From assembly GCA_964557205.1 (NCBI GenBank), contig CAZKZI010000001.1, positions 29,284-93,283 of the forward strand: a stretch of 64,000 nucleotides of DNA, read 5' to 3'. A model generated the notes under the pieces. It ran no database searches and was not told where the DNA came from. It was given only the letters and a program-made list of their open reading frames with translations. Source of the stretch: an uncultured Lentisphaeraceae bacterium (GTDB taxonomy: Bacteria > Verrucomicrobiota > Kiritimatiellia > RFP12 > UBA1067). Positions 273 through 56,790 of this stretch are shown here, piece by piece (position 1 is the stretch's first letter; the number at the start of each line of letters is the position of its first letter). Made by a program: the position numbers and the translations under genes.

Positions 273-1274
273 ATGAAGAACATCGGGATCGCTGCCGGGG
301 TAATGATTTCTGTTGGCTGTGCGCAGGCGGATGCGGTTGTTTCGTCAGTGTTCCTCGGCGACCCGCTGCCGACGCCGTCGTGCCACGCCTCGACGATAAC
401 GGAGACTTCGGGGGGGATGGTGGCGGCGTGGTTCGGCGGCACACATGAGCAGCACCCGGATGTGGGCATCTGGCTGGCGCGGCAGGAGAGCGGAAAATGG
501 CTGCCCGCGCGGGAGGTTGCGAACGGTGTGCAGCCGGACGGCACGCGTCACCCTTGCTGGAACCCGGTGCTCTATACGGCCAAGGACGGGACGCTGGTGT
601 TGTTCTATAAGGTCGGGGCGGACTGCACATGGTGGTGGGGCGAGCGCATGGTCTCGCGCGACGGGGGTAAAACCTGGTCCGTGCCGGTCAAGCTGCCGAA
701 CGGCATGATCGGCCCGATCAAGAACAAGCCGCTGGCTTTGCCGGACGGGCGTGTGCTGTGCGGAGCCAGCACCGAGTTCGGTCCGTGGCTGGTGCATGTC
801 GAGACGACCGACGACGCGGGTGCGGTCTGGTCGCGCACGGGAAACCTGCACGGGCGGCACATCAACGCGATCCAGCCGAGTTTTCTGACACATCCGGATA
901 ACGTGCTGCAGATGGTCGGGCGGACAAAGGAGAAGCGGGTCTTCTCGATCTTCTCCAGTGACGGTGGCGCGACATGGGGCGAGATGACACTGCTGGAGGT
1001 GCCGAACCCGTGTTCGGGGACCGATGCGGTGACGCTCAAGGACGGACGGCACCTGCTGGTCTGCAATCCGGTGGAGAAGGGGCGTTCGCCGCTGTCGGTA
1101 ATGCTCTCCGGCGACGGCGTCAAGTGGCGCGAGGCGCTGGTTCTCGAAGACGAGCCCGGCAAGGAGTTCTCTTATCCGGCAGTGATTCAGGCGGCGGACG
1201 GCAAAGTGCATGTGACGTACACATGGAAGCGGAAAAACGTGCGGCATGTTGTGATCGATACGACGAAACTATAA
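273..1274 (+). CDS. BNR/Asp-box repeat exo-alpha-sialidase-like glycoside hydrolase (GH33-like), probable lipoprotein
   Basis: 333-aa ORF. N-terminal signal with Cys (ISVGCAQ). Asp-box motifs SRDGGKTWS and SSDGGATWG. Overall sialidase beta-propeller-like composition. Antisense ORF 345..1247 judged spurious. Confidence 0.75.
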   Translation: MKNIGIAAGVMISVGCAQADAVVSSVFLGDPLPTPSCHASTITETSGGMVAAWFGGTHEQHPDVGIWLARQESGKWLPAREVANGVQPDGTRHPCWNPVLYTAKDGTLVLFYKVGADCTWWWGERMVSRDGGKTWSVPVKLPNGMIGPIKNKPLALPDGRVLCGASTEFGPWLVHVETTDDAGAVWSRTGNLHGRHINAIQPSFLTHPDNVLQMVGRTKEKRVFSIFSSDGGATWGEMTLLEVPNPCSGTDAVTLKDGRHLLVCNPVEKGRSPLSVMLSGDGVKWREALVLEDEPGKEFSYPAVIQAADGKVHVTYTWKRKNVRHVVIDTTKL

Positions 1275-1299
1275 TGCGATACACGAAAGGAAAAGCCAA

Positions 1300-2529
1300 A
1301 TGACGACAAAACGAGCAATCAGCATGTTGATCATGTGTTTAGCGGGTATTGTGGCTGTGGGCGCACTGGCTGATACCCCGGAAATTACGGGCGTGACAGT
1401 GCGGCAGCGCTGGCCGTGGAGCCGGCTGGTGGACATTGATTATGTCCTGACCTGTAACCCGACGCAGCGGGTGGACATTGCTGTACATGCCTATAACGGG
1501 TCGGAGAAACTCTTTTTTCCCTTAGATGCTTTATCCGGTGATCTGATGAATATCGGACAGGGTGCCAAGCGCATCGTCTTGGATCCCGTTAAAACCGGCT
1601 ACACGAACGAAGCGCTCACGCAGTTCAGCGTGGAACTGACACCGACTGATCCGCCCGTTTACATGATCGTGGATCTGACCAGGGATGCGGGGACGGAAGG
1701 CCAGATCGAGTATGTGTACGAAGCGGATTTGACGAACGGCTTCTGGGGTTCCTGGGAGAGAAACCCGATTACAAATGAGACTGGAGAGGCCCTTGTCGAG
1801 TCTGTCATCTGGACCGGCGTGACGACCAATGCTATCTATAAGACGGACAAGCTCGTTCTGAGACGCGCGTCGGCGGGCTCCTTCACAATGGGAGATCCAC
1901 CCGGGACTTTGACGGAGGTAGATGAAGATTTCTACGTGAGCGTGTTCGCTGTGACTCAAGCGCAATGGGACAAGGTCACGGGAGGGAGCAGTACAGCCGT
2001 TACGCCTAAAGCGGCTTTGTCTTACAATGCCCTTCGGGGTGCGACGACAAACTCGCCCGCTGTTGACTGGCCCGAGACAGAATCCTATGTCGCGCCTGCC
2101 AGTTTCATAGCCAGGCTCCGAAATAAGACCGGTATCACCGACTTCGACCTGCCCACGCAAACGCAGTGGGAGTATGCGTGCCGGGCGGAAACAACAACCT
2201 ACTACAACGATGGCATAGAGGGGGACATCACAACCTACACCAACCGATTGGACAATCTGGCGTGGTGGAAAAACAACAGTGGTGGCGGTATAAAGGAAGT
2301 CGGGCTGAAGACCGCGAATGCCTGGGGGTTGTACGATATGCACGGCAATGTCTGGGAGTGGTGTCTGGATTGGTTTGATATATCATGCACGCAGCGCTAT
2401 ACGCGGGGCGGGGACAGACGTGTCGACTTCGATATCTGCCGTTCAGGGTTTAATGACAACGGTGGCGATCCGTCTGTCGGACAAAGCGGTTTCGGCTTGC
2501 GTCTTGTCCGAACACTGGAATGCCCTTGA
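1300..2529 (+). CDS. secreted protein with C-terminal formylglycine-generating-enzyme (FGE/SUMF1-type) domain and uncharacterised N-terminal domain
   Basis: 409 aa with signal peptide. Hallmark FGE-sulfatase motifs FTMGDPPG...VSVFAVTQAQW and GLYDMHGNVWEWCLDWF in the C-terminal half. N-terminal ~180 aa are not recognisable. Confidence 0.7.
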   Translation: MTTKRAISMLIMCLAGIVAVGALADTPEITGVTVRQRWPWSRLVDIDYVLTCNPTQRVDIAVHAYNGSEKLFFPLDALSGDLMNIGQGAKRIVLDPVKTGYTNEALTQFSVELTPTDPPVYMIVDLTRDAGTEGQIEYVYEADLTNGFWGSWERNPITNETGEALVESVIWTGVTTNAIYKTDKLVLRRASAGSFTMGDPPGTLTEVDEDFYVSVFAVTQAQWDKVTGGSSTAVTPKAALSYNALRGATTNSPAVDWPETESYVAPASFIARLRNKTGITDFDLPTQTQWEYACRAETTTYYNDGIEGDITTYTNRLDNLAWWKNNSGGGIKEVGLKTANAWGLYDMHGNVWEWCLDWFDISCTQRYTRGGDRRVDFDICRSGFNDNGGDPSVGQSGFGLRLVRTLECP

Positions 2530-2540
2530 CCTGAGCGGTT

Positions 2541-3977
2541 TTGGGGATGAATAAAAAAACCATAATGGCCTTGGGGGTTTTGTCGGCTGGGGTTTTATGG
2601 GCTAGTCCGCTCATTCACTCTGATTGTGCGAACGACCGGAAGGCGCCCTTGGTCTGGGACCGTCCGAAGGAGTTTGATCCCGGCAAGCCGCATCTCGGCC
2701 TGCCGGTACTGACAGGCGCAACCCATCGTGTGCTTTACGATCCGCTCCCGAGCGAGGCCGACAAGACCGGACGCTACGAAAGTCTGCGGCACGGCACTTA
2801 TAACCACCATCAAAGTTTTGTCCGCTACAAGGATCGGGTGATCGTACTGTGGACCAATCACATGCGGGATGAAAACGGTCCGGGAATGCGTTTTTTGGCG
2901 AAGACCGGACGACTGGCGGCAGACGAGTCGGATATCGATTGGGGCAAAGACGAGACGCTTTCGGAAATCGGCCCGTCCGCGCATCCGGTGCGGCGGCGCC
3001 GAAACAAGGACGACACTTCAGTGATCGACGGGATTTTCGTCAACTCGGGGCTGGAAGTTCTGGAAGACGGACGCCTGTTCGTCTCGACAAGTCTGAAAGT
3101 CTGCGACGGCTGGGCGGATGACATTCAATATCATGTGGGGCAGGGACTGCGGGAACCGATACCGGATGAGCATTACGAGGCTTATAAAACTGTTGGGCCT
3201 GACCGTAAGCGGGGGTTCCGCTGGGACATCTACTGGTACGTGGGGCGTTACTTGCAGCAGGTGGAGATGGATGATGCGGGCAGGATCAAGCCTGCGGGAC
3301 AGATGTATGTAGTCGGAAAACCGCCGAAGACTGAAATGCGCCTGACCCCGACAATCACCAAAAAACTCTTGCCGCTGAATGAACCCTACCGCAGCGCGGT
3401 GCCATACGGGAAGGCGCCTGAAGAGTTGCGGAGCGCCTATTCCACGGGGCGGAGGGTTGCATCCTGCGGGCGTACGCCGCGATACGCGCCCGGCACATTC
3501 AAACTGGCGGAAAACGGTAAAAACGGCTTGTTCCACAACACGGAGTTTGTTCGTCCGGACGGCATGTGGGTCGCGGTGCGGGACAATCTGCTCGATACGG
3601 AAATATATTACGCGGCAGTTAAAGGCGACAAAGACGGGTTTTATCCGCCGGGGCGCAGAACCAACATGTTCGGAGGCGTCATGCCGGTGGCAGGCGAGCT
3701 GCCGAGCGGCGCGGTCTGGCTGATCGGCAGCAACCTGAACCGCACGGAGGCCTTCATCACGCTCGCAAAGGACGGTATTCATTTCAACAAAACGTGGTCG
3801 CTGCTTTCGCTGAATCTAAAGGCCACGCTAGGCATCTGCAAGGGTAGCGGCGGCGCGCAGTATTTCAGACAGATCACTATCGGACCGAACATCTGGGTCG
3901 TGTACAGTATTGCCAAGGAACAGGTTGGGATCACGAAGATTCCAGTCGCGTTGCTGGAACAAAAATTGAAGGAATGA
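2541..3977 (+). CDS. secreted hypothetical protein, tandem paralog A (unknown fold; possibly a glycan-active beta-propeller)
   Basis: 478 aa with signal peptide. Long collinear identity with the next ORF, e.g. HRVLYDPLPSEADKTGRYESLRHGTYNHHQ and GPNIWVVYSIAKEQVGITKIPVALLEQKLK in both. No family recognised by eye. Confidence 0.6.
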   Translation: MGMNKKTIMALGVLSAGVLWASPLIHSDCANDRKAPLVWDRPKEFDPGKPHLGLPVLTGATHRVLYDPLPSEADKTGRYESLRHGTYNHHQSFVRYKDRVIVLWTNHMRDENGPGMRFLAKTGRLAADESDIDWGKDETLSEIGPSAHPVRRRRNKDDTSVIDGIFVNSGLEVLEDGRLFVSTSLKVCDGWADDIQYHVGQGLREPIPDEHYEAYKTVGPDRKRGFRWDIYWYVGRYLQQVEMDDAGRIKPAGQMYVVGKPPKTEMRLTPTITKKLLPLNEPYRSAVPYGKAPEELRSAYSTGRRVASCGRTPRYAPGTFKLAENGKNGLFHNTEFVRPDGMWVAVRDNLLDTEIYYAAVKGDKDGFYPPGRRTNMFGGVMPVAGELPSGAVWLIGSNLNRTEAFITLAKDGIHFNKTWSLLSLNLKATLGICKGSGGAQYFRQITIGPNIWVVYSIAKEQVGITKIPVALLEQKLKE

Positions 3978-4004: not shown

Positions 4005-5408
4005 ATGATGTTTTTCAGAAGTGGTCTTGCGGCGCTGGCCGCCGCGCTGGTTTGCGCGGAGGAGCCCCCGTTGGTCTGGAAGCAGCCTGCCGGGTTCGAT
4101 CCCGGTAAGGCGGGACTGGGCCTGCCGGTGCTTACGGGGACGACCCATCGGGTGCTTTACGATCCGCTTCCGAGCGAGGCCGACAAGACCGGGCGCTATG
4201 AAAGTCTGCGCCACGGGACGTATAACCACCATCAAACGTTTTTCCGTTATAACAACCGTGTGATTATACGGTGGACCAACCACATGCAGGATGAAAATGG
4301 CCCCGGACAACGCTGCCTGGCGAAGACCGGACGGCTGACGGAAGACGGATCGGATATTGACTGGGGCGGGGACGAGACACTCTCCGAGCTGTGTCCGCCC
4401 CCGCATCCTGTACGCCGCCGCAGGAGCGCGGACACCAATTCCGTGATAGACGGGTTATTCGCCACAGCAGGACTTCATATACTGGAAGACGGGCAGATGT
4501 TTGTTTCTGTCCAGGTGAAACTCTGTGAGGGCTGGACGGATGACCTGAAATATCACACCGGCCTTTCGGAGCCGGTTCCGGACGAACACTACAATCCGGG
4601 ACCCGACCGGAAGCGGGGTTTCAAGTGGGATATTTACTGGAAGATGGGTAATTACCTGCGGCAGGTCGAGATGGATGATACGGGCAGGATCATGCCGATT
4701 GGACCGATGTACATCATAGGAAAGCCGCCGCTTACAACGGAGTTGCAGATCACCCCGACGATCGCCAAAAAAATATTGCCTATGAACGAGCCCTACCGCA
4801 GCGCGGTGCCTTATGAGACCGCGCCTAAAGAGATCAGGGACGCCTATTCCAAGGGGCCAAGGGTTCCGTCTTGCAGACGTTCGCTAAAGTATGCACCGGG
4901 CACGTCTCTGCTGGCCGAGAACGGTAAGAACGGGTTGATGCACAGTACAGAGTTTGTCCGTCCGGACGGAAAATGGGTTGCGGTGCGGGACAACCTGCTG
5001 GATCTCAGGATTTATTACGCGGCGGTCAAGGACAAGCAAGACGAGGTTTATCCGCCGGGGCGCAGGACCAACCTTTTTGGGGCCGTGATGCCGGTCGCGG
5101 GAGAATTGCCGAGCGGCGCGGTCTGGCTGATCGGCAGCAATCTGAGCCGTACAGAGGCTTACATCACGCTCGCCAAGGACGGTATTCATTTCGAAAAAAC
5201 ATGGTCGCTGCTATCTTCACAGAATCTCAGAGCCATGCATGGCATCAGTAAGGCATCGTCCGGCATCTGCAAAGGCGGTGACGGCGCGCAGTATTTTCAT
5301 TCAGTGACTATCGGACCGAACATCTGGGTCGTGTACAGTATTGCCAAGGAACAGGTGGGGATCACGAAGATTCCGGTCGCGTTGTTGGAACAGAAGCTGA
5401 AAAAGTAA
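4005..5408 (+). CDS. secreted hypothetical protein, tandem paralog B
   Basis: 467 aa, roughly 65-70% identical to the 2541..3977 product over its full length. Signal peptide MMFFRSGLAALAAALVCA. Confidence 0.6.
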   Translation: MMFFRSGLAALAAALVCAEEPPLVWKQPAGFDPGKAGLGLPVLTGTTHRVLYDPLPSEADKTGRYESLRHGTYNHHQTFFRYNNRVIIRWTNHMQDENGPGQRCLAKTGRLTEDGSDIDWGGDETLSELCPPPHPVRRRRSADTNSVIDGLFATAGLHILEDGQMFVSVQVKLCEGWTDDLKYHTGLSEPVPDEHYNPGPDRKRGFKWDIYWKMGNYLRQVEMDDTGRIMPIGPMYIIGKPPLTTELQITPTIAKKILPMNEPYRSAVPYETAPKEIRDAYSKGPRVPSCRRSLKYAPGTSLLAENGKNGLMHSTEFVRPDGKWVAVRDNLLDLRIYYAAVKDKQDEVYPPGRRTNLFGAVMPVAGELPSGAVWLIGSNLSRTEAYITLAKDGIHFEKTWSLLSSQNLRAMHGISKASSGICKGGDGAQYFHSVTIGPNIWVVYSIAKEQVGITKIPVALLEQKLKK

Positions 5409-12967: not shown

Positions 12968-14038
12968 TTAAATTGCTGCGCCGAATTTGACGCAGACGGG
13001 TCTGTACATCGCGAGCGGGTCGTGCGCGGGGGTCAGGCGCCCCGTGACCGGGTCGTAGGCGTATGACATCAGCTCGTTTGAATTCTCATGCCCCAGCAGC
13101 ACGAACTTGCCGCCCGGCATGAACTCGAAGTCACGCGGCGATTGGCCTGCCAGTTTCGAGATCGCCAGCAACGACATCCTGCCGGTCTCGGAGTCGATGT
13201 CATAGGCGGCGATGCTGTCGTGGCCGCGGTTGGAGCCGAAAAGGCGGTGTCCGTCCGGCGCGAACTTGAGTGCCGAGGCTTTGCTGTAATCTTTGAAGTC
13301 GGGCGGCAGCATGCTGACGGTCTGGATGTGAACGAAAGCGTCGCCGGTATAAATGAAAGACGAGATGGTGTTGTTAAGCTCGTGCAGGAGATAGGCTGTC
13401 TTACGGTTGGAATGAAAAACTATGTGGCGCGGGCCTGCGCCGCCGGCGCTGGTGATCGTCAGTTCCGCTTTTTCCTTCAAGCCGGAGGCACGTCCCGGAA
13501 AGTCATAAACCTTGACCCGGTCGATACCGAGGTCAACTACGCACAGGTGTCGGCTGTCCGGCGACACTTCGGCGCAATGCGTGTGCGCCTTCTGCTGTCT
13601 TTTGGGGTCGGGCCCGCTGCCGGTGTGCTGGACGGTGACAGGCGGCGTGTCGGCAATGCTGCCATCGGGATTAATTTCAAAGACGCCTGCCACAGCGTTT
13701 GTGTATTCGGCGAAAACCAGCGCCCGCTCTGCAGGATCGAGAGCCACATAGCAGGGCGGCGTGACTCCGACGGGCTTGTGGTTGATCGGTAGCAGTTTAT
13801 CGTCTTTGATGGCGTACGCGGCTACGGCTCCGTTCGTGGCGCTGGGGCCGTACTCGGCCAGACTTTGGGCAGCATAAAGAAAGGTGTTGCTCCGGTTGAG
13901 CGTCAGGTAGATGGCGTTTTGGATGCCGCTGACAACGCCGACGGGCTGGAACGTGCCTTTTTCGGCATCAGTCTCGACAATGTGGATACCCTCTTTTTTC
14001 TCGTCAGTATAACATCCCACATAGGTGATGTATTTCAT
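12968..14038 (-). CDS. pgl: 6-phosphogluconolactonase (lactonase, 7-bladed beta-propeller / 3-carboxymuconate-cycloisomerase-type)
   Basis: 356 aa. N-terminus MKYITYVGCYTDEKKEGIHIV and overall Pgl/lactonase-family pattern. Confidence 0.7.
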   Translation of the reverse strand: MKYITYVGCYTDEKKEGIHIVETDAEKGTFQPVGVVSGIQNAIYLTLNRSNTFLYAAQSLAEYGPSATNGAVAAYAIKDDKLLPINHKPVGVTPPCYVALDPAERALVFAEYTNAVAGVFEINPDGSIADTPPVTVQHTGSGPDPKRQQKAHTHCAEVSPDSRHLCVVDLGIDRVKVYDFPGRASGLKEKAELTITSAGGAGPRHIVFHSNRKTAYLLHELNNTISSFIYTGDAFVHIQTVSMLPPDFKDYSKASALKFAPDGHRLFGSNRGHDSIAAYDIDSETGRMSLLAISKLAGQSPRDFEFMPGGKFVLLGHENSNELMSYAYDPVTGRLTPAHDPLAMYRPVCVKFGAAI

Positions 14039-50838: not shown

Positions 50839-51217
50839 GGCTCTCCCCGTTTTATAAGCCCGCTCACAGGCCTGATACCTGTTTCATGCTGACTATTAAA
50901 CCAAAAATACGATACCCTGTCATGTCCACCATTTGGTTATATTTTTAGCAACCGCTCAGAAGTCAGTATTCACAAGGAAAACCCAGCCGGCCAAAAAGGA
51001 ACACCAAGCGAGAATGTAGATTGGGGATTTTCAATTTGCGATTTAGACTGGGTCTTGCGTCTTGGGGTCCTGAGTCCGAATAGCATGACCCTGAGGACGG
51101 TTCTGGGAACTATCCGCTCCAACATCTGCGATCCGCATGGTAGGGACGCATCCCCTGTTTTTCCCCTCTCCATTGCGTCCACTTGGTGGTCGCAATAACT
51201 GGTTCCTTAGTTTTCTC

Positions 51218-52363
51218 TTACGGGAGCTTGGTATTGGGTTTAACCGCATCTTGGGGCCAGGGATTCTTAGCTCCAAATACAAGCATCTGCGCACGAGTCT
51301 CGCTCACAAAAAAAGATTCGTCGATTTTTCCATCAACCTCGGTCACCCTGCTGAGATCCAGCTTTAAATGCTTTGCCAGAAAGGGGTAGGCTGCCATCCG
51401 TTTGGAAACGCCGTAATCATGCTTCTCCTCAGCAAAGTGGGCATTCTCAACTTTATCACCCGCATCGTAAAGCTCATAGACCTGCTTCACATAAGGATAT
51501 TCAACCTGCGGGGTGTTCACCGTCCAGTCATGTCCATTCGAAATCATCAGCATTGGACGTGGAGCGGCCATTGCGGCAATTTCAACATTGCTGGTTTTAT
51601 GCGTTTTGCTCCAGTGAATCGGCATACCGCTCTCGCATACACAGCCGCCAAAGAAATGGGCGGATATCTGGCAGACCGGAACACTCACCGCAATGCGAGG
51701 ATCAATCGCAGTCAGAATAAAAGTTTGTGTCCCGCCCCCTGAACAACCGGTCATTCCAATTCGCTTTGGATCGACATCCGGCAGCGTGAGCATAAAGTCC
51801 AGAACCCGAATGCTGTTCCATGTCATCAGCCTAAGAACCTCCGGTGTGTCTGCGTGTGACCAGCCAGCCTCCTTGGAATCGCCATAGCCAACCATGTCAT
51901 AAAGAAATACCGCCGCGCCCATCTTTGCCAGCACCGCGCAACGGCATTGGCGCGAATCTCGGAAACGTCCCCCATGTCCATGAGGGCAGAGAATACCGGC
52001 CAGCGAACCACTGAAATCGGCAGGACGGTAGAGAGTCCCCGTGACATAAAAACCAGGCGAACTTTGAATAGCTACGCTCTCGACAATATATCCGTTATAT
52101 GCACGCTTATTGTAAAACTGTGGCTTGAGATCAGTTCTCGCGGGAAGCTCTGTCAGCCTTGCACCTGCTAAAATGCCTGCCAATAAATTCGCCCGTCGTT
52201 TTTTCCATCCCGCCAAATCCGAGTAGGTGCTTTTAAACTCCGCGAGCTCTTTGACAGCTTCCTCCGGTGTCTGCGCATATCCCACCCGCAACTGAAGTTC
52301 ATCGGCATTGGCAGACACACAGAACAATAGTGATACAAACAAGAGAAACGTAATTTTTTTCAT
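51218..52363 (-). CDS. secreted alpha/beta-hydrolase esterase (acetyl-xylan-esterase/dienelactone-hydrolase-like)
   Basis: Signal peptide [20 protein letters not shown]. Nucleophile elbow TGCSGGG. GHGG oxyanion-like motif. GC content (~50%) lower than surrounding genome. Confidence 0.6.
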
Positions 52364-52492
52364 GTGCCAAAATATCTTTGTTTAATGGGAGTTTGTCAAG
52401 AATGTTAACTGGCGTGAGTTTATTTTAGGTTGTTTGTGTTTATATTTTTTGATTGTACTATCCCGCCCGTAAAGCTGATAATCTTTTCCACT

Positions 52493-53515
52493 ATGAAAAA
52501 AACATCTTTTGCATTCGTCGTCAGCGGTAGACTCTTGTCCGCCATCATCCTTGCGTTCACCACACTTGAAGGCACCGCCGCGCCATGTTGCGCTAACCCT
52601 TATATCGGCCGATGGGCCTTGACCATCCCCGGCGGAGGCGCGGGCTGGCTCGGCATCGAACAACAAGCCTGCGGCGCGCTCAAAGGCTCGATCCTCTGGG
52701 GCGGCGGTAGCGTCGTGCCCGTGAGCGAAACCAAGCTTGAAGGCAACACGCTGCTGATCGTCCGCAACCACAATCGCAAGAAGGACGGCAAGAGTGTGCA
52801 GTATGTCGAAACCATCACCGCCCGCCTCGATAACAACAAGCTGGCCCTGTCCACCCGCACCGTGGACGAGACCGGCAAACAGATCGGTCAGGCTGACTTC
52901 ACCGGCCAGCGCATTCCCGACCTTCCGTCGCGTCCGGATCTCGCCAAACTAAAGTTCGGTGCACCCGTCAAACTGATCGCCTCCACCGATCTCTCCGGCT
53001 GGAAGGCCATGAACGCGAAAGCCCCCAACTTCTGGTCGGTCGCCGACGGCACCCTCGGCAACCGTGTTCCAAAAGGCCCTGACAACAAAAAACTGCACGG
53101 CACCAACATCCGCACCGAGGCCGAGTTTGAGGATTTCAACCTCAAGACTGAAGTGCGCGTGCCCAAAAACGGCAACAGCGGCATCTACCTGCGCGGCATC
53201 TACGAGGTGCAGGTCGCGGAAACCTTCGGCAAACCTTGCGACTCCCACAACATGGGCGCGCTCTACAGCCGCATCACCCCCTCCAGTGCCGCCGAGAAAC
53301 CGGCCGACGAGTGGCAGACCCTCGACATCACCCTCGCCAACCGCCACCTGACCGTGATCCTAAACAACACCGTCATCATCGACAACCAGCCCGTGCTCGG
53401 CTGTACCGGCGGTGCCATGACCTCTGACGAATTCCGCCCCGGCCCGATCTACCTGCAAGGCGACCACACCAATGTCGACTACCGCAACATGATCCTGACT
53501 CCGATCGTCAAATAA
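52493..53515 (+). CDS. DUF1080 (3-keto-disaccharide hydrolase / LamG-like jelly-roll) domain protein, secreted
   Basis: Signal peptide. Duplicated jelly-roll with GIYLRGIYEVQVAETFGK and IYLQGDHTNVDYRNMIL motifs typical of DUF1080. ATG 52493 chosen. Confidence 0.65.
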   Translation: MKKTSFAFVVSGRLLSAIILAFTTLEGTAAPCCANPYIGRWALTIPGGGAGWLGIEQQACGALKGSILWGGGSVVPVSETKLEGNTLLIVRNHNRKKDGKSVQYVETITARLDNNKLALSTRTVDETGKQIGQADFTGQRIPDLPSRPDLAKLKFGAPVKLIASTDLSGWKAMNAKAPNFWSVADGTLGNRVPKGPDNKKLHGTNIRTEAEFEDFNLKTEVRVPKNGNSGIYLRGIYEVQVAETFGKPCDSHNMGALYSRITPSSAAEKPADEWQTLDITLANRHLTVILNNTVIIDNQPVLGCTGGAMTSDEFRPGPIYLQGDHTNVDYRNMILTPIVK

Positions 53516-53550
53516 CCGGTTTCCCCATCCGGTCAACTTGGTCAATTGTT

Positions 53551-53567
53551 AACTAGGGGACAGGTTG
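53551..53567. repeat. direct repeat copy 1 (aacTaggggacaggttg) immediately 3' of fucosidase gene
   Basis: 16/17 identical to 55401-55417 (aacCaggggacaggttg). The pair brackets the low-GC fucosidase gene plus its AT-rich upstream region (~1.85 kb). Confidence 0.55.
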
Positions 53568-53570
53568 AAA

Positions 53571-55034
53571 TCACTTTACCTCTACCTTTAAGGCAAAACC
53601 CGGAACATTGTTTCTGTTAATGACAGGCAGACTGATGTCAATCTTATCGCCTGAAATTTTCCATTCCAGCCTTCCCTTTTCGCCCAGTAGTCTTACACTC
53701 TTGATCTCGTGCCGGAGATCGTAAAGTGCTTTAACGCTTACCTTCCGGTTCACATTGGAAGCAATGGATATAACATAAACATTGTTGCCCTTCCTGGTAA
53801 ACCAGAAATCATCTGACGTAAAAACAGTATTAAACCCATGTTCTTTCCTGTCGGCAGTGCCTTTCATATCCAGGGTGGTAGATCCTTCTTTCCGAGTTGT
53901 CCAGCTGCCGGTGCCATAAATAGCCTCTCCGTTAATCTTCATCCAGGCCCCTATATCCTTTAATATTTTAACACTGGCCTCCGGTATTACCCCATTTTCG
54001 TCTGGCCCGACATTCAGCAGGTAATTTCCTCCCTTGCTGGCAATCTCAACAATCCAGAAAAGCATTTCATTTAATGATTTCCAGTCTTTATCATAGCTCT
54101 TATACCCCCAGGTGTTATTCAATGTTCCCGGGGTCTCCCATATTTTGTATCTACTGTTTATGGCAGTTGGAATCTGGTTGTCTCCAGCAGTAAGCAGATC
54201 CCCGAATCCATTTCCCACACGACTGTTTACAAGGCATTCGGGTTGATATTCATATACAAGCTTATAGAAATCAAAACTCTGCTGCCTGTTCATGTACCTG
54301 GGGAAATCGTACCATATTTCAACCAGGTCGGGAAATCTGGCGAGTATCTCCCTCATCTGTGGTTTTGCTTTGTTTTCAATATATTCATCGTATGATACCG
54401 GGGATGGATCCCATGTATTGGATGCATGTGTGTCATTCATCTTCGGATTAGCCTTTTTAGCCTGTGCTATTCCGGCATCACCCCCGTCCATCCAGTCAAT
54501 TGAATGGGAATAATATATACCGAATCTGATTCCGTATTTCTGGCAGGCCTTGTAAAGCTCCTCCATAGGATCGCGTTTAAAGGGAGTCAGATCATAAATG
54601 TTATAATCTGTAACCTTTGAATGGTACATGGCAAAGCCGTCATGATGCTTTGGCATGGCGACAATATACTTCATTCCAGCATCTTTAGCCAGCTTAACCC
54701 ACTCTTCCGCATTGAATCCCACTGGATTGAATGTTTTTGCAATTTCCCGGTATTCATCCCGCGGTATCTGTGCACTGTACATTATCCATTCACCTATTAT
54801 GGCCTGTCCTCCATGCGTTTCAGGAATGATATTTACTCCCTTATATATTCCACCAAGCTTTGAGTAAACGCCCCAGTGTATGAACATACCAAATTTAAGT
54901 TCATTATAACTCTTAAACTGATCCTTCTTTGACGAATACATCTTTCCCCATTCTGACTGGATCATGTCTTCTTCCTGTGAAAAAGCAAATCCAAAAGAAC
55001 AAAGACAGACTACAGCAAACACTATTTCTTTCAT
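53571..55034 (-). CDS. alpha-L-fucosidase, glycoside hydrolase family 29
   Basis: GH29 hallmarks FGMFIHWGVYS, KYIVAMPKHHDGFAMYHSKVTDYNI. Signal peptide MKEIVFAVVCLCSFGFAFSQ. Markedly low GC (~45%) versus ~62% flanks. ATG 55034 chosen (track start 55043 is TTG). Confidence 0.85.
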   Translation of the reverse strand: MKEIVFAVVCLCSFGFAFSQEEDMIQSEWGKMYSSKKDQFKSYNELKFGMFIHWGVYSKLGGIYKGVNIIPETHGGQAIIGEWIMYSAQIPRDEYREIAKTFNPVGFNAEEWVKLAKDAGMKYIVAMPKHHDGFAMYHSKVTDYNIYDLTPFKRDPMEELYKACQKYGIRFGIYYSHSIDWMDGGDAGIAQAKKANPKMNDTHASNTWDPSPVSYDEYIENKAKPQMREILARFPDLVEIWYDFPRYMNRQQSFDFYKLVYEYQPECLVNSRVGNGFGDLLTAGDNQIPTAINSRYKIWETPGTLNNTWGYKSYDKDWKSLNEMLFWIVEIASKGGNYLLNVGPDENGVIPEASVKILKDIGAWMKINGEAIYGTGSWTTRKEGSTTLDMKGTADRKEHGFNTVFTSDDFWFTRKGNNVYVISIASNVNRKVSVKALYDLRHEIKSVRLLGEKGRLEWKISGDKIDISLPVINRNNVPGFALKVEVK

Positions 55035-55400
55035 GGTATGCAACCTTTCCGGGGCAACCTCGATACGCCCGGTAGTTTTCAGACAGGGAAGAGCGCGAAG
55101 AACGGCCCTTTATGCCTGTACGTTACCTTTTCCCCACCTGCACCTGCAGACAGTCCAAAACTAATCCTTTAAAGCGCCAAGATTATCGCCTTTGCCAATT
55201 ACCGGCAAGTGTAATTAATTGGATGTGGGACAAAAAAGTGACTTTACCTTGTAAAGCGGTTCATGCGGCCTTCTTACGAAGAGTCGCCCATCTTTTTTAT
55301 GACTGGTAATGCCTCAGTTATTGGCAGGTAATTACTTCTAATTCCGTAGATCAATAATTATGTGATGAAAAAAATAAGGCTCCTCGGCAGAATTTGTGGG

Positions 55401-55417
55401 TAAACCAGGGGACAGGT
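55401..55417. repeat. direct repeat copy 2 (aacCaggggacaggttg) upstream of fucosidase cassette
   Basis: See copy 1 at 53551-53567. Confidence 0.55.
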
Positions 55418-55547
55418 TGTTTATGTTACCATACCACTGACAGCCGCGCGGACGCGTCTGCACCCGCCGCCTCCCAAACGCGGGCTTTGCGGTGTTCCGG
55501 CGATGTGTTACAGTACATCTATGCTTTATAGGTGAAGAGAATGTGAC

Positions 55548-55850
55548 ATGCCCACACTGCAATGGTTGGACGACGACCAGGCCCGGAGAACCGTCGAAAA
55601 GGTGCCGTACCGGATGCTCCGGCCGGACGATGCGCTCTCGTGCGGTGACACTGACATTGTCACCATGCTCATTCTGGGCGACAAGCGCACGGCCAGCGGG
55701 AACGTGCTCAATTCTACGGTTTACGCCGGCCTGCCGCCGTTTGACGGGCCGAAGGTGATTTACGGGGAGTGGTGCCAATGGGGCACGGAGCGGCTCAAGC
55801 GTGAAAAGGTGGCGTTCAAGCAGACGCCGTATGACATCCGCGTGCGATGA
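55548..55850 (+). CDS. hypothetical protein (100 aa)
   Basis: GC-consistent ORF with purine-rich RBS-like sequence upstream. No recognisable family. No signal peptide. Confidence 0.35.
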   Translation: MPTLQWLDDDQARRTVEKVPYRMLRPDDALSCGDTDIVTMLILGDKRTASGNVLNSTVYAGLPPFDGPKVIYGEWCQWGTERLKREKVAFKQTPYDIRVR

Positions 55851-55915
55851 GAAAAAAGAGCGAAAGAGGTTTAGCCGCAAAGAGCGCAGAGAACGAAAAG
55901 AAGGGAGAGATGGGT

Positions 55916-56323
55916 ATGAAGACCATGAAAGAGTTGTGCGATATCGTGCGGGAAACGGCGTATGCGATACACGTCTATCATGGTCAGGGGCATTTGGAGA
56001 AGGTTTACGAGAACGCCTTAGCCCATCGGTTGCGTAAGGCCGGCGTTGAGGTGATGCAGCAACAGCCGCTCACCGTGTATGACGAGGACGGAACGGTGAT
56101 CGGCGAGTATTTTGCGGATCTGTTTGTGGACGGCCGGCTGATTGTCGAGTTGAAGGCGTGTCGCGCGTTGGCGCCGGAACACACCGCGCAGACGCTGGGA
56201 TACTTGAAATCTGCGAGGATTGAGGATGGGATGCTGATCAACTTCGGGAGCTTCAGGTTTCAGATACAGAAGTATGCGTTGCGTGATGCGGTAAGGCCGA
56301 AAGAGGGAATTGAAGAGGTTTAG
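55916..56323 (+). CDS. GxxExxY family protein (PD-(D/E)XK-like small protein family)
   Basis: ~135 aa. VYENALAHRLRKAGVEV...YFADLFVDGRLIVELKA...HTAQTLGYLKSARIEDGMLINFG matches the GxxExxY family pattern. ATG 55916 with AAGGGAGAG RBS. Confidence 0.75.
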   Translation: MKTMKELCDIVRETAYAIHVYHGQGHLEKVYENALAHRLRKAGVEVMQQQPLTVYDEDGTVIGEYFADLFVDGRLIVELKACRALAPEHTAQTLGYLKSARIEDGMLINFGSFRFQIQKYALRDAVRPKEGIEEV

Positions 56324-56790
56324 CCGCAAAGAACGCAGAGAACACAAAGAAGAGGGAGTAGTCAGCCGGTGACAGATTGTCACCGACTGGATTGATTCAA
56401 TCTCTGCGGTCCTTGCGTTCTTTGCGGCCAAATGAATTGGAGAGGTTTAGCCGCAGGGAAAGCAGAGAGTGCGAAGGAGCAAAGCGCATTAAGAAGGAAG
56501 GAAGCCAATCGGTGACAAATTGTCACCAGTTGAAAATGGAGGCCGAAGCCGGCAAGCTGCGTCTCACAAAACGCTGTTTGTGAGACGCAAATCAATTTGA
56601 GACGAATAGGTGAGACTCAAGCGGGACCGCTCAGAGAGAAAAGCGGGAGTCAAGTCAATCGGTTACAAATTGCAACCGGCTGGAATTCGGACACTGCTCC
56701 AATCTCTGCGATCCTTGCGTTCCTTGCGGCCAAATGAATTGGAGCGGTCTTAGCCGCAGACAGGGCCAGCCTGCGCGAGCAGGTGGCGCT
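56305..56790. repeat. array of three or more related structured repeat modules; first copy of the leader at 55862-55909 precedes the GxxExxY gene
   Basis: Each module has three parts: a leader motif gaggtttagccgca(a/g)ag..gcagagaac...aagaagggag; a perfect palindrome cggtgaca(g/a)attgtcacc (56366-56384, 56507-56524; variant caatcggttacaaattgcaaccgg at 56655-56680); and the reverse-complement motif caatctctgcgrtccttgcgttcyttgcggccaaatgaattggag (56398-56443, 56700-56745). Also a separate 11-bp-stem hairpin cgtctcacaaaacgctgtttgtgagacg (56557-56584). Confidence 0.65.

Follow-up and report, generated by a model that had tools for sequence, protein, structure and literature searches.

How did a single low-GC gene, bracketed by a short direct repeat, come to lie among the core genes of a chromosome of clearly different composition? 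This question is raised by a stretch of 64,000 nt (hereafter the window) on contig CAZKZI010000001.1 in the metagenome-assembled genome (MAG) of an uncultured Lentisphaeraceae bacterium (Kiritimatiellia), where a gene for an alpha-L-fucosidase of glycoside hydrolase family 29 (GH29) is the sole gene between two repeat copies. A previous examination of the letters and open reading frames (ORFs) without database searches (the sequence-only reading) had taken this locus for a cassette with one gene, of Bacteroidota type and acquired by horizontal transfer, a proposal borne out by foreign codon usage and k-mers and by the affinity of the protein. A recent transfer from Bacteroidota to Kiritimatiellia is on these sequence features well supported. 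As to the route of entry, we lean, with confidence only somewhat above even, towards a crossover by which Bacteroidota DNA of about 1.83 kb recently entered the chromosome, the repeats representing the recombination joints. The parts of the cassette are as follows.

53568..55399, minus strand: foreign, Bacteroidota-like DNA that fills the 1,832 bp from one repeat to the other, 42.8% GC (by composition and donor-like segmentation)
53571..55034, minus strand: intact gene for the GH29 alpha-L-fucosidase, with start codon ATG at 55034 and 487 codons followed by a stop (by Pfam, PDB and alignment)
55035..55399, minus strand: 5' non-coding region of 365 bp that is donor-like in composition and contains no remnant of an ORF (by ORF and composition scans)
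53548..53567, no strand assigned: left copy of the direct repeat, GTTAACTAGGGGACAGGTTG, separated by 3 nt from the stop codon of the fucosidase gene
55400..55419, no strand assigned: right copy of the direct repeat, GTAAACCAGGGGACAGGTTG, with a GC content of 62% directly after it

Origin and boundaries of the cassette

The GC content between the repeats compares with 56.8% in the whole window and about 60% in the left neighbour gene; surroundings of ~62% GC, as given in the sequence-only reading, are found locally, but not in the window overall. At third codon positions the GC content (GC3) of the fucosidase gene is 0.45 versus 0.69 +/- 0.065 for 43 other ORFs of the window, which is 3.7 standard deviations lower, while four Bacteroidota orthologues show values of 0.38-0.46. 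As the GC3 of the fucosidase equals that of its Bacteroidota orthologues, no drift toward the host is visible. Equally, the per-codon likelihood of the gene is higher with a Bacteroidales codon table (-1.02) than with the host table (-1.25), the latter being favoured by the genes for a DUF1080 protein, a 100-aa ORF (ORF100), a GxxExxY protein and an amidase, with a CE15-like esterase gene neutral.

The protein affinity points in the same direction. Among the best 120 matches, all at least 60% identical, every named organism belongs to the Bacteroidota (Bacteroidales, Prolixibacteraceae, Chitinophagaceae, Ginsengibacter, Maribellus); the best non-self matches are 76-80% identical, and the contigs that carry orthologues have 39-43% GC, one of them with 76% DNA identity over the gene. 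The donor may have been Bacteroidales or Prolixibacteraceae-like. That the gene is instead native to the Kiritimatiellia, vertically inherited and just atypical in composition, could draw on the neighbouring CE15-like gene, which also has a low GC3 (0.52) and yet has relatives in the Planctomycetes-Verrucomicrobia-Chlamydiae (PVC) bacteria. This alternative is barely conceivable for the fucosidase with its exclusively Bacteroidota named close relatives, its donor-equal composition changing abruptly at the repeats, a 90% identity protein cluster that contains this organism alone and no GH29 relative in the other Kiritimatiellia loci compared.

The extent of the foreign block was delimited by two approaches. 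A two-state change-point fit of the GC content places its edges at 53445-53568 and 55375-55447. A comparison of Markov models, the donor model trained on Bacteroidota loci without the fucosidase orthologues and the host model on all remaining parts of the window, shows an unbroken series of 19 donor-like bins of 100 nt each (53500-55399) with a sharp change of sign on both sides, and with model orders 0 to 3 the maximal donor-like segment runs from 53510/53535 to 55433/55440. With segmentation edges of about 53510-55440, the repeats lie at the edges of the foreign block within the resolution of the method. The 365-bp 5' region, which has stop codons in all six frames, came in together with the fucosidase gene; no homology was found between it and the flanks of orthologues or the other loci compared. 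The palindrome that the sequence-only reading had pointed out in this upstream block exists (55195-55222, 7-nt perfect arms). As the regional fold is no better than that of shuffled sequences (z -0.44), however, it is indistinguishable from chance and is treated as such.

Since the source is a MAG contig and the only one to span both junctions, with other assemblies ending at 52344, 53699 and 55309-55333, a chimera might be suspected, in which the assembler stitched a Bacteroidota fragment between two Kiritimatiellia pieces. Against this, each junction is found at 100% identity in the products of other assemblers, although these may rest on the same reads. The left junction is crossed by a Logan contig of SRR8437217 (L013), which corresponds to positions 51170-55333, and by a k=141 contig from ENA (L014), which corresponds to 52344-53699; both also encode the exact DUF1080 protein. 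The right junction is crossed by a second Logan contig (L016; 55309-60114), which overlaps the first by 25 nt at 55309-55333; a contig of 20-50 kb with the genes of the right flank has also been reported. Furthermore, an overlap of 13 nt, the length that the repeats have exactly in common, does not suffice for a false join in a de Bruijn graph at the usual k. The recurrence of both junctions thus renders a chimera very improbable, and the breaks at 53699 and 55309-55333 could be due to low coverage or strain variation.

The repeat pair and the route of entry

The two repeat copies are direct and 20 nt long, with 18 of the 20 positions identical, the 13 nt at the 3' end exact (core AGGGGACAGGTTG) and a start-to-start spacing of 1852 nt. 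Within them lie the two 17-mers by which the sequence-only reading had seen the segment bracketed: AACTAGGGGACAGGTTG was correctly placed at 53551-53567, while AACCAGGGGACAGGTTG exists but stands at 55403-55419 and not at 55401-55417. With up to 3 mismatches allowed, the repeat has two copies only in the 64 kb (0.13 expected). The frequency of the 17-mer, through which a genome-wide abundance would have marked the bracket as chance, was low in the DNA examined, as 415 kb of related loci contain no copy of it. Two matches to it were found in IMG/VR, and the one inspected (L045) is taken as chance because it sits within a sigma-factor-like ORF; a widespread element was on these grounds rejected.

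Taken alone, the repeat is unremarkable, as 38 exact 13-mer direct pairs spaced by at most 3 kb exist in the window, mainly in paralogues and low-complexity DNA. It is the position that matters. For direct matches between one boundary zone and the other the highest score is 14, a value that none of 4000 shuffles reached and that was obtained in 16 of 4000 placements chosen at random with unchanged geometry, whereby placements that fall on true repeats of the window can score as high. We take the position of the repeat at the boundaries as a real coincidence, with a chance probability of roughly 1e-3. These numbers bear directly on the view that illegitimate end-joining, unrelated at the two ends, attached the foreign DNA and that the repeat is fortuitous. 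The repeat was found post hoc, and about a dozen exact 13-mer pairs within 3 kb remain in the window outside true repeats; on the other hand, both copies fall into narrow boundary zones with 18 of 20 positions in common, a constellation met by no shuffle and by 0.4% of random placements, some of them on true repeats. We consider a fortuitous repeat unlikely.

The pattern of identity within the repeat is informative with respect to its origin. As 13 nt are perfect and the adjacent positions agree in 5 of 7, the copies look like hybrids of similar pre-existing sequences and not like a fresh duplication. In addition, the bases that follow the stop of the fucosidase gene, TGATTTCAACCTGTCC, are similar to those found 3' of Bacteroidota orthologues, namely TGATTTTAAACTGATC (L036) and, seven bases further on, TTTCAACCT (L001), and the gene-proximal copy is on account of this resemblance probably in part donor DNA. 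In the favoured scenario a short sequence on the incoming DNA, which was probably circular or circularised, would have crossed over once with a similar sequence on the chromosome. The circular donor would have carried ...TGATTT-CAACCTGTCCCCT-GGTTTAC-CCACAAA... and the chromosome ...ACATAAA-CAACCTGTCCCCT-AGTTAAC-AATTGACC..., and the crossover would have left two hybrid copies in the manner of attL and attR. The empty site would then read ...CAATTGT[T/A]AAC[T/C] followed by the core, which would be joined directly to TTTATGTTACC, and if the crossover was guided by homology, the donor DNA after the fucosidase stop would hold CAACCTGTCCCC. Since the cassette encodes no recombinase, the crossover would have been catalysed in trans or have been a short-homology (illegitimate) event.

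For the latter, precedents are given by the formation of lambda bio transducing phages at 9-13-bp homologies and by homology-facilitated illegitimate recombination when Acinetobacter takes up foreign DNA. In common with these, about 13 bases are identical between otherwise unrelated DNAs, the insert has no dedicated recombinase, and a single crossover with a circle would yield hybrid repeats as observed. The difference is that the known cases are laboratory selections, while circle and pre-insertion sequences have here been deduced from the product.

Several observations weigh against a crossover. Thirteen identical bases are below the usual need of RecA-type recombination, and the likeness to the donor 3' flanks is short and comes from two loci. 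The large ORFs of the window that were scanned contained no integrase, transposase or recombinase domain, nor was a sigma-70-type promoter found upstream of the fucosidase on the gene strand. The source contig alone spans both junctions, the other assemblies breaking inside or near the cassette. Finally, neither an empty site nor a second insertion was found, so that insertion as opposed to rearrangement is not directly demonstrated. In GTDB representatives, the DUF1080 orthologues show no synteny beyond the gene itself, and in metagenomes no DUF1080 relative exceeds 83% identity; an exact scan of the metagenome collection for the predicted empty site gave 0 matches, contigs with CE15 orthologues had unrelated, non-syntenic neighbourhoods, and no contig of the same species without the cassette was recovered.

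The sequence-only reading had explained the repeats by site-specific (att-like) insertion or by target duplication, neither of which could be established in view of a cassette without recombinase, the lack of a tRNA target and copies that differ at 2 of 20 positions. If a transposition-like or staggered-cut insertion had copied about 13 nt of host DNA, an exact 13-nt match directly at both edges would be expected, as is present, and the further agreement at 5 of 7 positions would be chance. By our estimate, such agreement has a chance probability of ~0.01-0.03. Moreover, a transposase is missing, as are terminal inverted repeats inward of the two copies, the copy next to the gene is similar to donor 3' flanks, and 13 nt is unusually long for known insertion sequences, all of which makes a target-site duplication improbable. 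Insertion sequences and transposons in general were rejected on the same features, transposase ORF and terminal inverted repeats being absent, the inner ends AAATCACTTTACC... and ...GCAGAATTTGTGG not forming inverted repeats.

An att-like origin would be conceivable for the remainder of a decayed integrative element, that is, a larger Bacteroidota island with an integrase and a 13-nt att core that has lost everything except the fucosidase and its att sites. The identical core with diverged arms is what attL and attR look like, the 365-bp non-coding block could be debris, and the collapsed methylase gene that adjoins the cassette shows that deletions have occurred at the locus. Bacteroides NBU1 has a 14-bp common core; with NBU1 and with the attL/attR of phages and integrative and conjugative elements the cassette has in common direct repeats exactly at the element edges whose core, about 13-14 nt, is identical and whose outer positions have diverged. 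It is distinguished from them by its single cargo gene and by the lack of an integrase in the element or in the scanned ORFs of the window, and no tRNA or tmRNA target is present in the window. Of the features of an integrative element, the direct repeats with identical core are present at both ends and the element-encoded integrase is absent. The 365 bp contain no integrase fragment or ORF remnant, the unameliorated composition implies little time for several precise deletions, and plasmids and phages give no corresponding match. We therefore ascribe a low probability to a decayed element. Carriage by a plasmid or a phage was likewise rejected, with weak coding-sequence matches only in plasmids and none in phages.

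Integron cassettes are also single genes without a recombinase of their own, bounded by a short repeated sequence, but this comparison does not hold beyond that point, as an attC hairpin, GTTRRRY sites and an IntI domain in the ORFs scanned are lacking, the 5' region is long and the stop codon lies 3 nt from the boundary. The last feature leaves no room for attC, which in integron cassettes follows the 3' end of the ORF as an imperfect palindrome of 57-141 bp. Neither junction folds better than shuffled sequences on either strand (z from +0.70 to -1.28), and none of the boundary 7-mers, GTTGAAA and GTTGTTT on the plus strand and GTTAACA and GTTTACC on the minus strand, fits GTTRRRY; an integron cassette was accordingly dismissed. 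An integrative mobile element exploiting Xer (IMEX) at a dif site was rejected for want of a palindromic partner arm: at the right junction TTATGTTA matches 8 of 11 bases of the XerD arm of the E. coli dif consensus, which may not be the dif of this host, and no inverted CATAA is present in ACCAGGGGACA, where the XerC arm would have to lie. An Rfam scan in and near the cassette gave no match, with one sub-threshold match elsewhere.

A more far-reaching idea, which we judge very unlikely, is that the 20-nt repeats are the sites of an undescribed trans-acting system that moves single promoter-bearing genes for carbohydrate-active enzymes (CAZymes) across phyla as recombinase-less cassettes. If true, this would be an integron-like function without attC, and further compositional islets, here as well as in the genomes of Bacteroidota donors, would be bounded by the same core.

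Irrespective of the route, the transfer is a known kind of event, a recent cross-phylum acquisition of a CAZyme gene, and involves no new type of element or enzyme. Horizontally acquired CAZyme genes involving Bacteroidota occur as 'genomic islets', with which the present locus has in common a single accessory glycoside hydrolase of donor-type composition, codon usage and signal peptide, set into the core chromosome of a polysaccharide degrader whose glycan diet would plausibly be widened. It differs from them in that the transfer is cross-phylum, the DNA comprises 1.83 kb without a mobility gene, and both junctions are kept, with a repeat of 13 exact nt in 20. Here the transfer has been caught early, with donor composition, 5' region and both insertion joints surviving. 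The preservation of both joints, which are rarely kept, is the unusual feature and provides a handle on how foreign DNA without a recombinase enters a chromosome.

The encoded enzyme

Two further features of the gene, one at the start of the protein and one upstream of it, pertain to export and expression.

54978..55034, minus strand: signal peptide, residues 1-19, MKEIVFAVVCLCSFGFAFS, followed by QEED with Gln20 as the first mature residue (cleavage site deduced from homologues)
55156..55163, minus strand: candidate promoter motif TAnnTTTG (TAGTTTTG), single, 121 nt upstream of the ATG (by motif match)

The gene product matches PF01120 (Alpha_L_fucos), the catalytic (beta/alpha)8 domain, with an E-value of 5.9e-77 and 259.9 bits (cut-off 25.2) over profile positions 15-345 of 345, and the beta-sandwich C-terminal fucosidase domain PF16757 with 32.6 bits (cut-off 25.6). 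A solved GH29 enzyme (PDB 9s0x_A) aligns full-length, across residues 31-485, with an E-value of 2.8e-151. D243 (in IWYDF) and E300 (in IWETPG) align with D200 and E274 of AlfC, which we take from the AlfC literature to be the nucleophile and the acid/base, respectively. With family profile, C-terminal domain and catalytic pair all present, the protein is, as predicted from these alignments, a complete GH29 alpha-L-fucosidase.

The signal peptide had been called Bacteroidetes-like in the sequence-only reading, and this assignment stands. The N-termini of all 15 closest homologues read end in ..FSQ, YSQ, FAQ or PQ, thus having Gln at +1 in common, which fits the Q-rule, the occurrence of Gln as the first mature residue that has been reported to be specific for Bacteroidetes (PMC5837995). 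The enzyme should be exported via the Sec pathway and remove terminal alpha-L-fucose. Its expression in the new host would possibly start from the single TAnnTTTG motif in the 5' region, a match to the Bacteroidota -7 consensus as known from Bacteroides promoters.

Fucoidan is among the sulfated glycans that Kiritimatiellales are known to degrade (PMC6388578), so that one more fucosidase would plausibly be useful to the host. On the ecological level, the locus stands for the sharing of a fucosidase gene between two groups of anaerobic polysaccharide degraders. A sulfated-glycan lifestyle also fits with two genes at the start of the window (273-2529, plus strand), one BNR/sialidase-like and the other with an FGE-sulfatase (sulfatase-maturating) domain.

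Chromosomal surroundings

The cassette occupies the spacer that separates the DUF1080 gene from a methylase remnant, in a region of core chromosome genes. The rest of the window encodes ribosomal proteins, SecY, EF-G, YidC, RecR, MurJ, GatA/B, electron transfer flavoprotein (ETF), DapA/B and a cell-wall amidase. The neighbouring genes are the following.

52493..53515, plus strand: left host flank, 3-keto-disaccharide hydrolase (DUF1080) gene, 60% GC, GC3 0.79 (by Pfam, orthologues and codon usage)
55548..55850, plus strand: right host flank, ORF100, 100 aa, collapsed DNA-methylase remnant with host-like codon usage (by homologues)
51218-52363, minus strand: CE15-like esterase gene (glucuronyl esterase/acetyl-xylan-esterase type), GC 50%, GC3 0.52 (outlier in composition)

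Orthologues of the DUF1080 protein with 71-87% identity are found in Kiritimatiellia MAGs. ORF100 consists of about 40 N-terminal aa and the 60 aa of the conserved C-terminus, fused at L-I-(L/Q)-G-D-(K/N), and its relatives include other truncated forms of 98-165 aa. From the alignment, ORF100 looks like the product of an internal deletion between two short similar L-I-(L/Q)-G-D-(K/N) stretches, and such a collapse of a methylase between similar stretches hints at short-homology events at this locus.

The CE15-like esterase was considered as a second import from Bacteroidota on account of its composition. This was rejected, as its closest relatives are 82-89% identical and the named ones are all PVC bacteria, namely Kiritimatiellia, Phycisphaerae and Akkermansiaceae. 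The AT-rich (28-33% GC) divergent spacer between the esterase and the DUF1080 gene (52364-52492), which ranks second among the donor-like segments of the composition scan, is most simply explained as a promoter region that both genes share.

Downstream of ORF100, around and after the GxxExxY (PDDEXK_3) gene, short repeats cluster at 55860-56760 and may be of the repetitive extragenic palindromic (REP) type or resemble miniature inverted-repeat transposable elements (MITEs). They comprise a 46-nt unit in three copies (55864, 56313, 56440) with an inverted copy at 56401-56432, a 54-nt unit in two copies (56393, 56695), and the palindrome GGTGACAnATTGTCACC in three copies spaced by ~145 nt (56360, 56503, 56653). 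At the other end of the window, two tandem paralogues on the plus strand (2547-3977 and 4005-5408; 476 and 467 aa), without a Pfam match, have many exact 13-20-mers in common. The GC skew changes its sign near 14,000, at the transition from genes on the plus strand (1-12.9 kb) to genes on the minus strand (13-55 kb), a switch that may be related to replication or be an effect of gene orientation.

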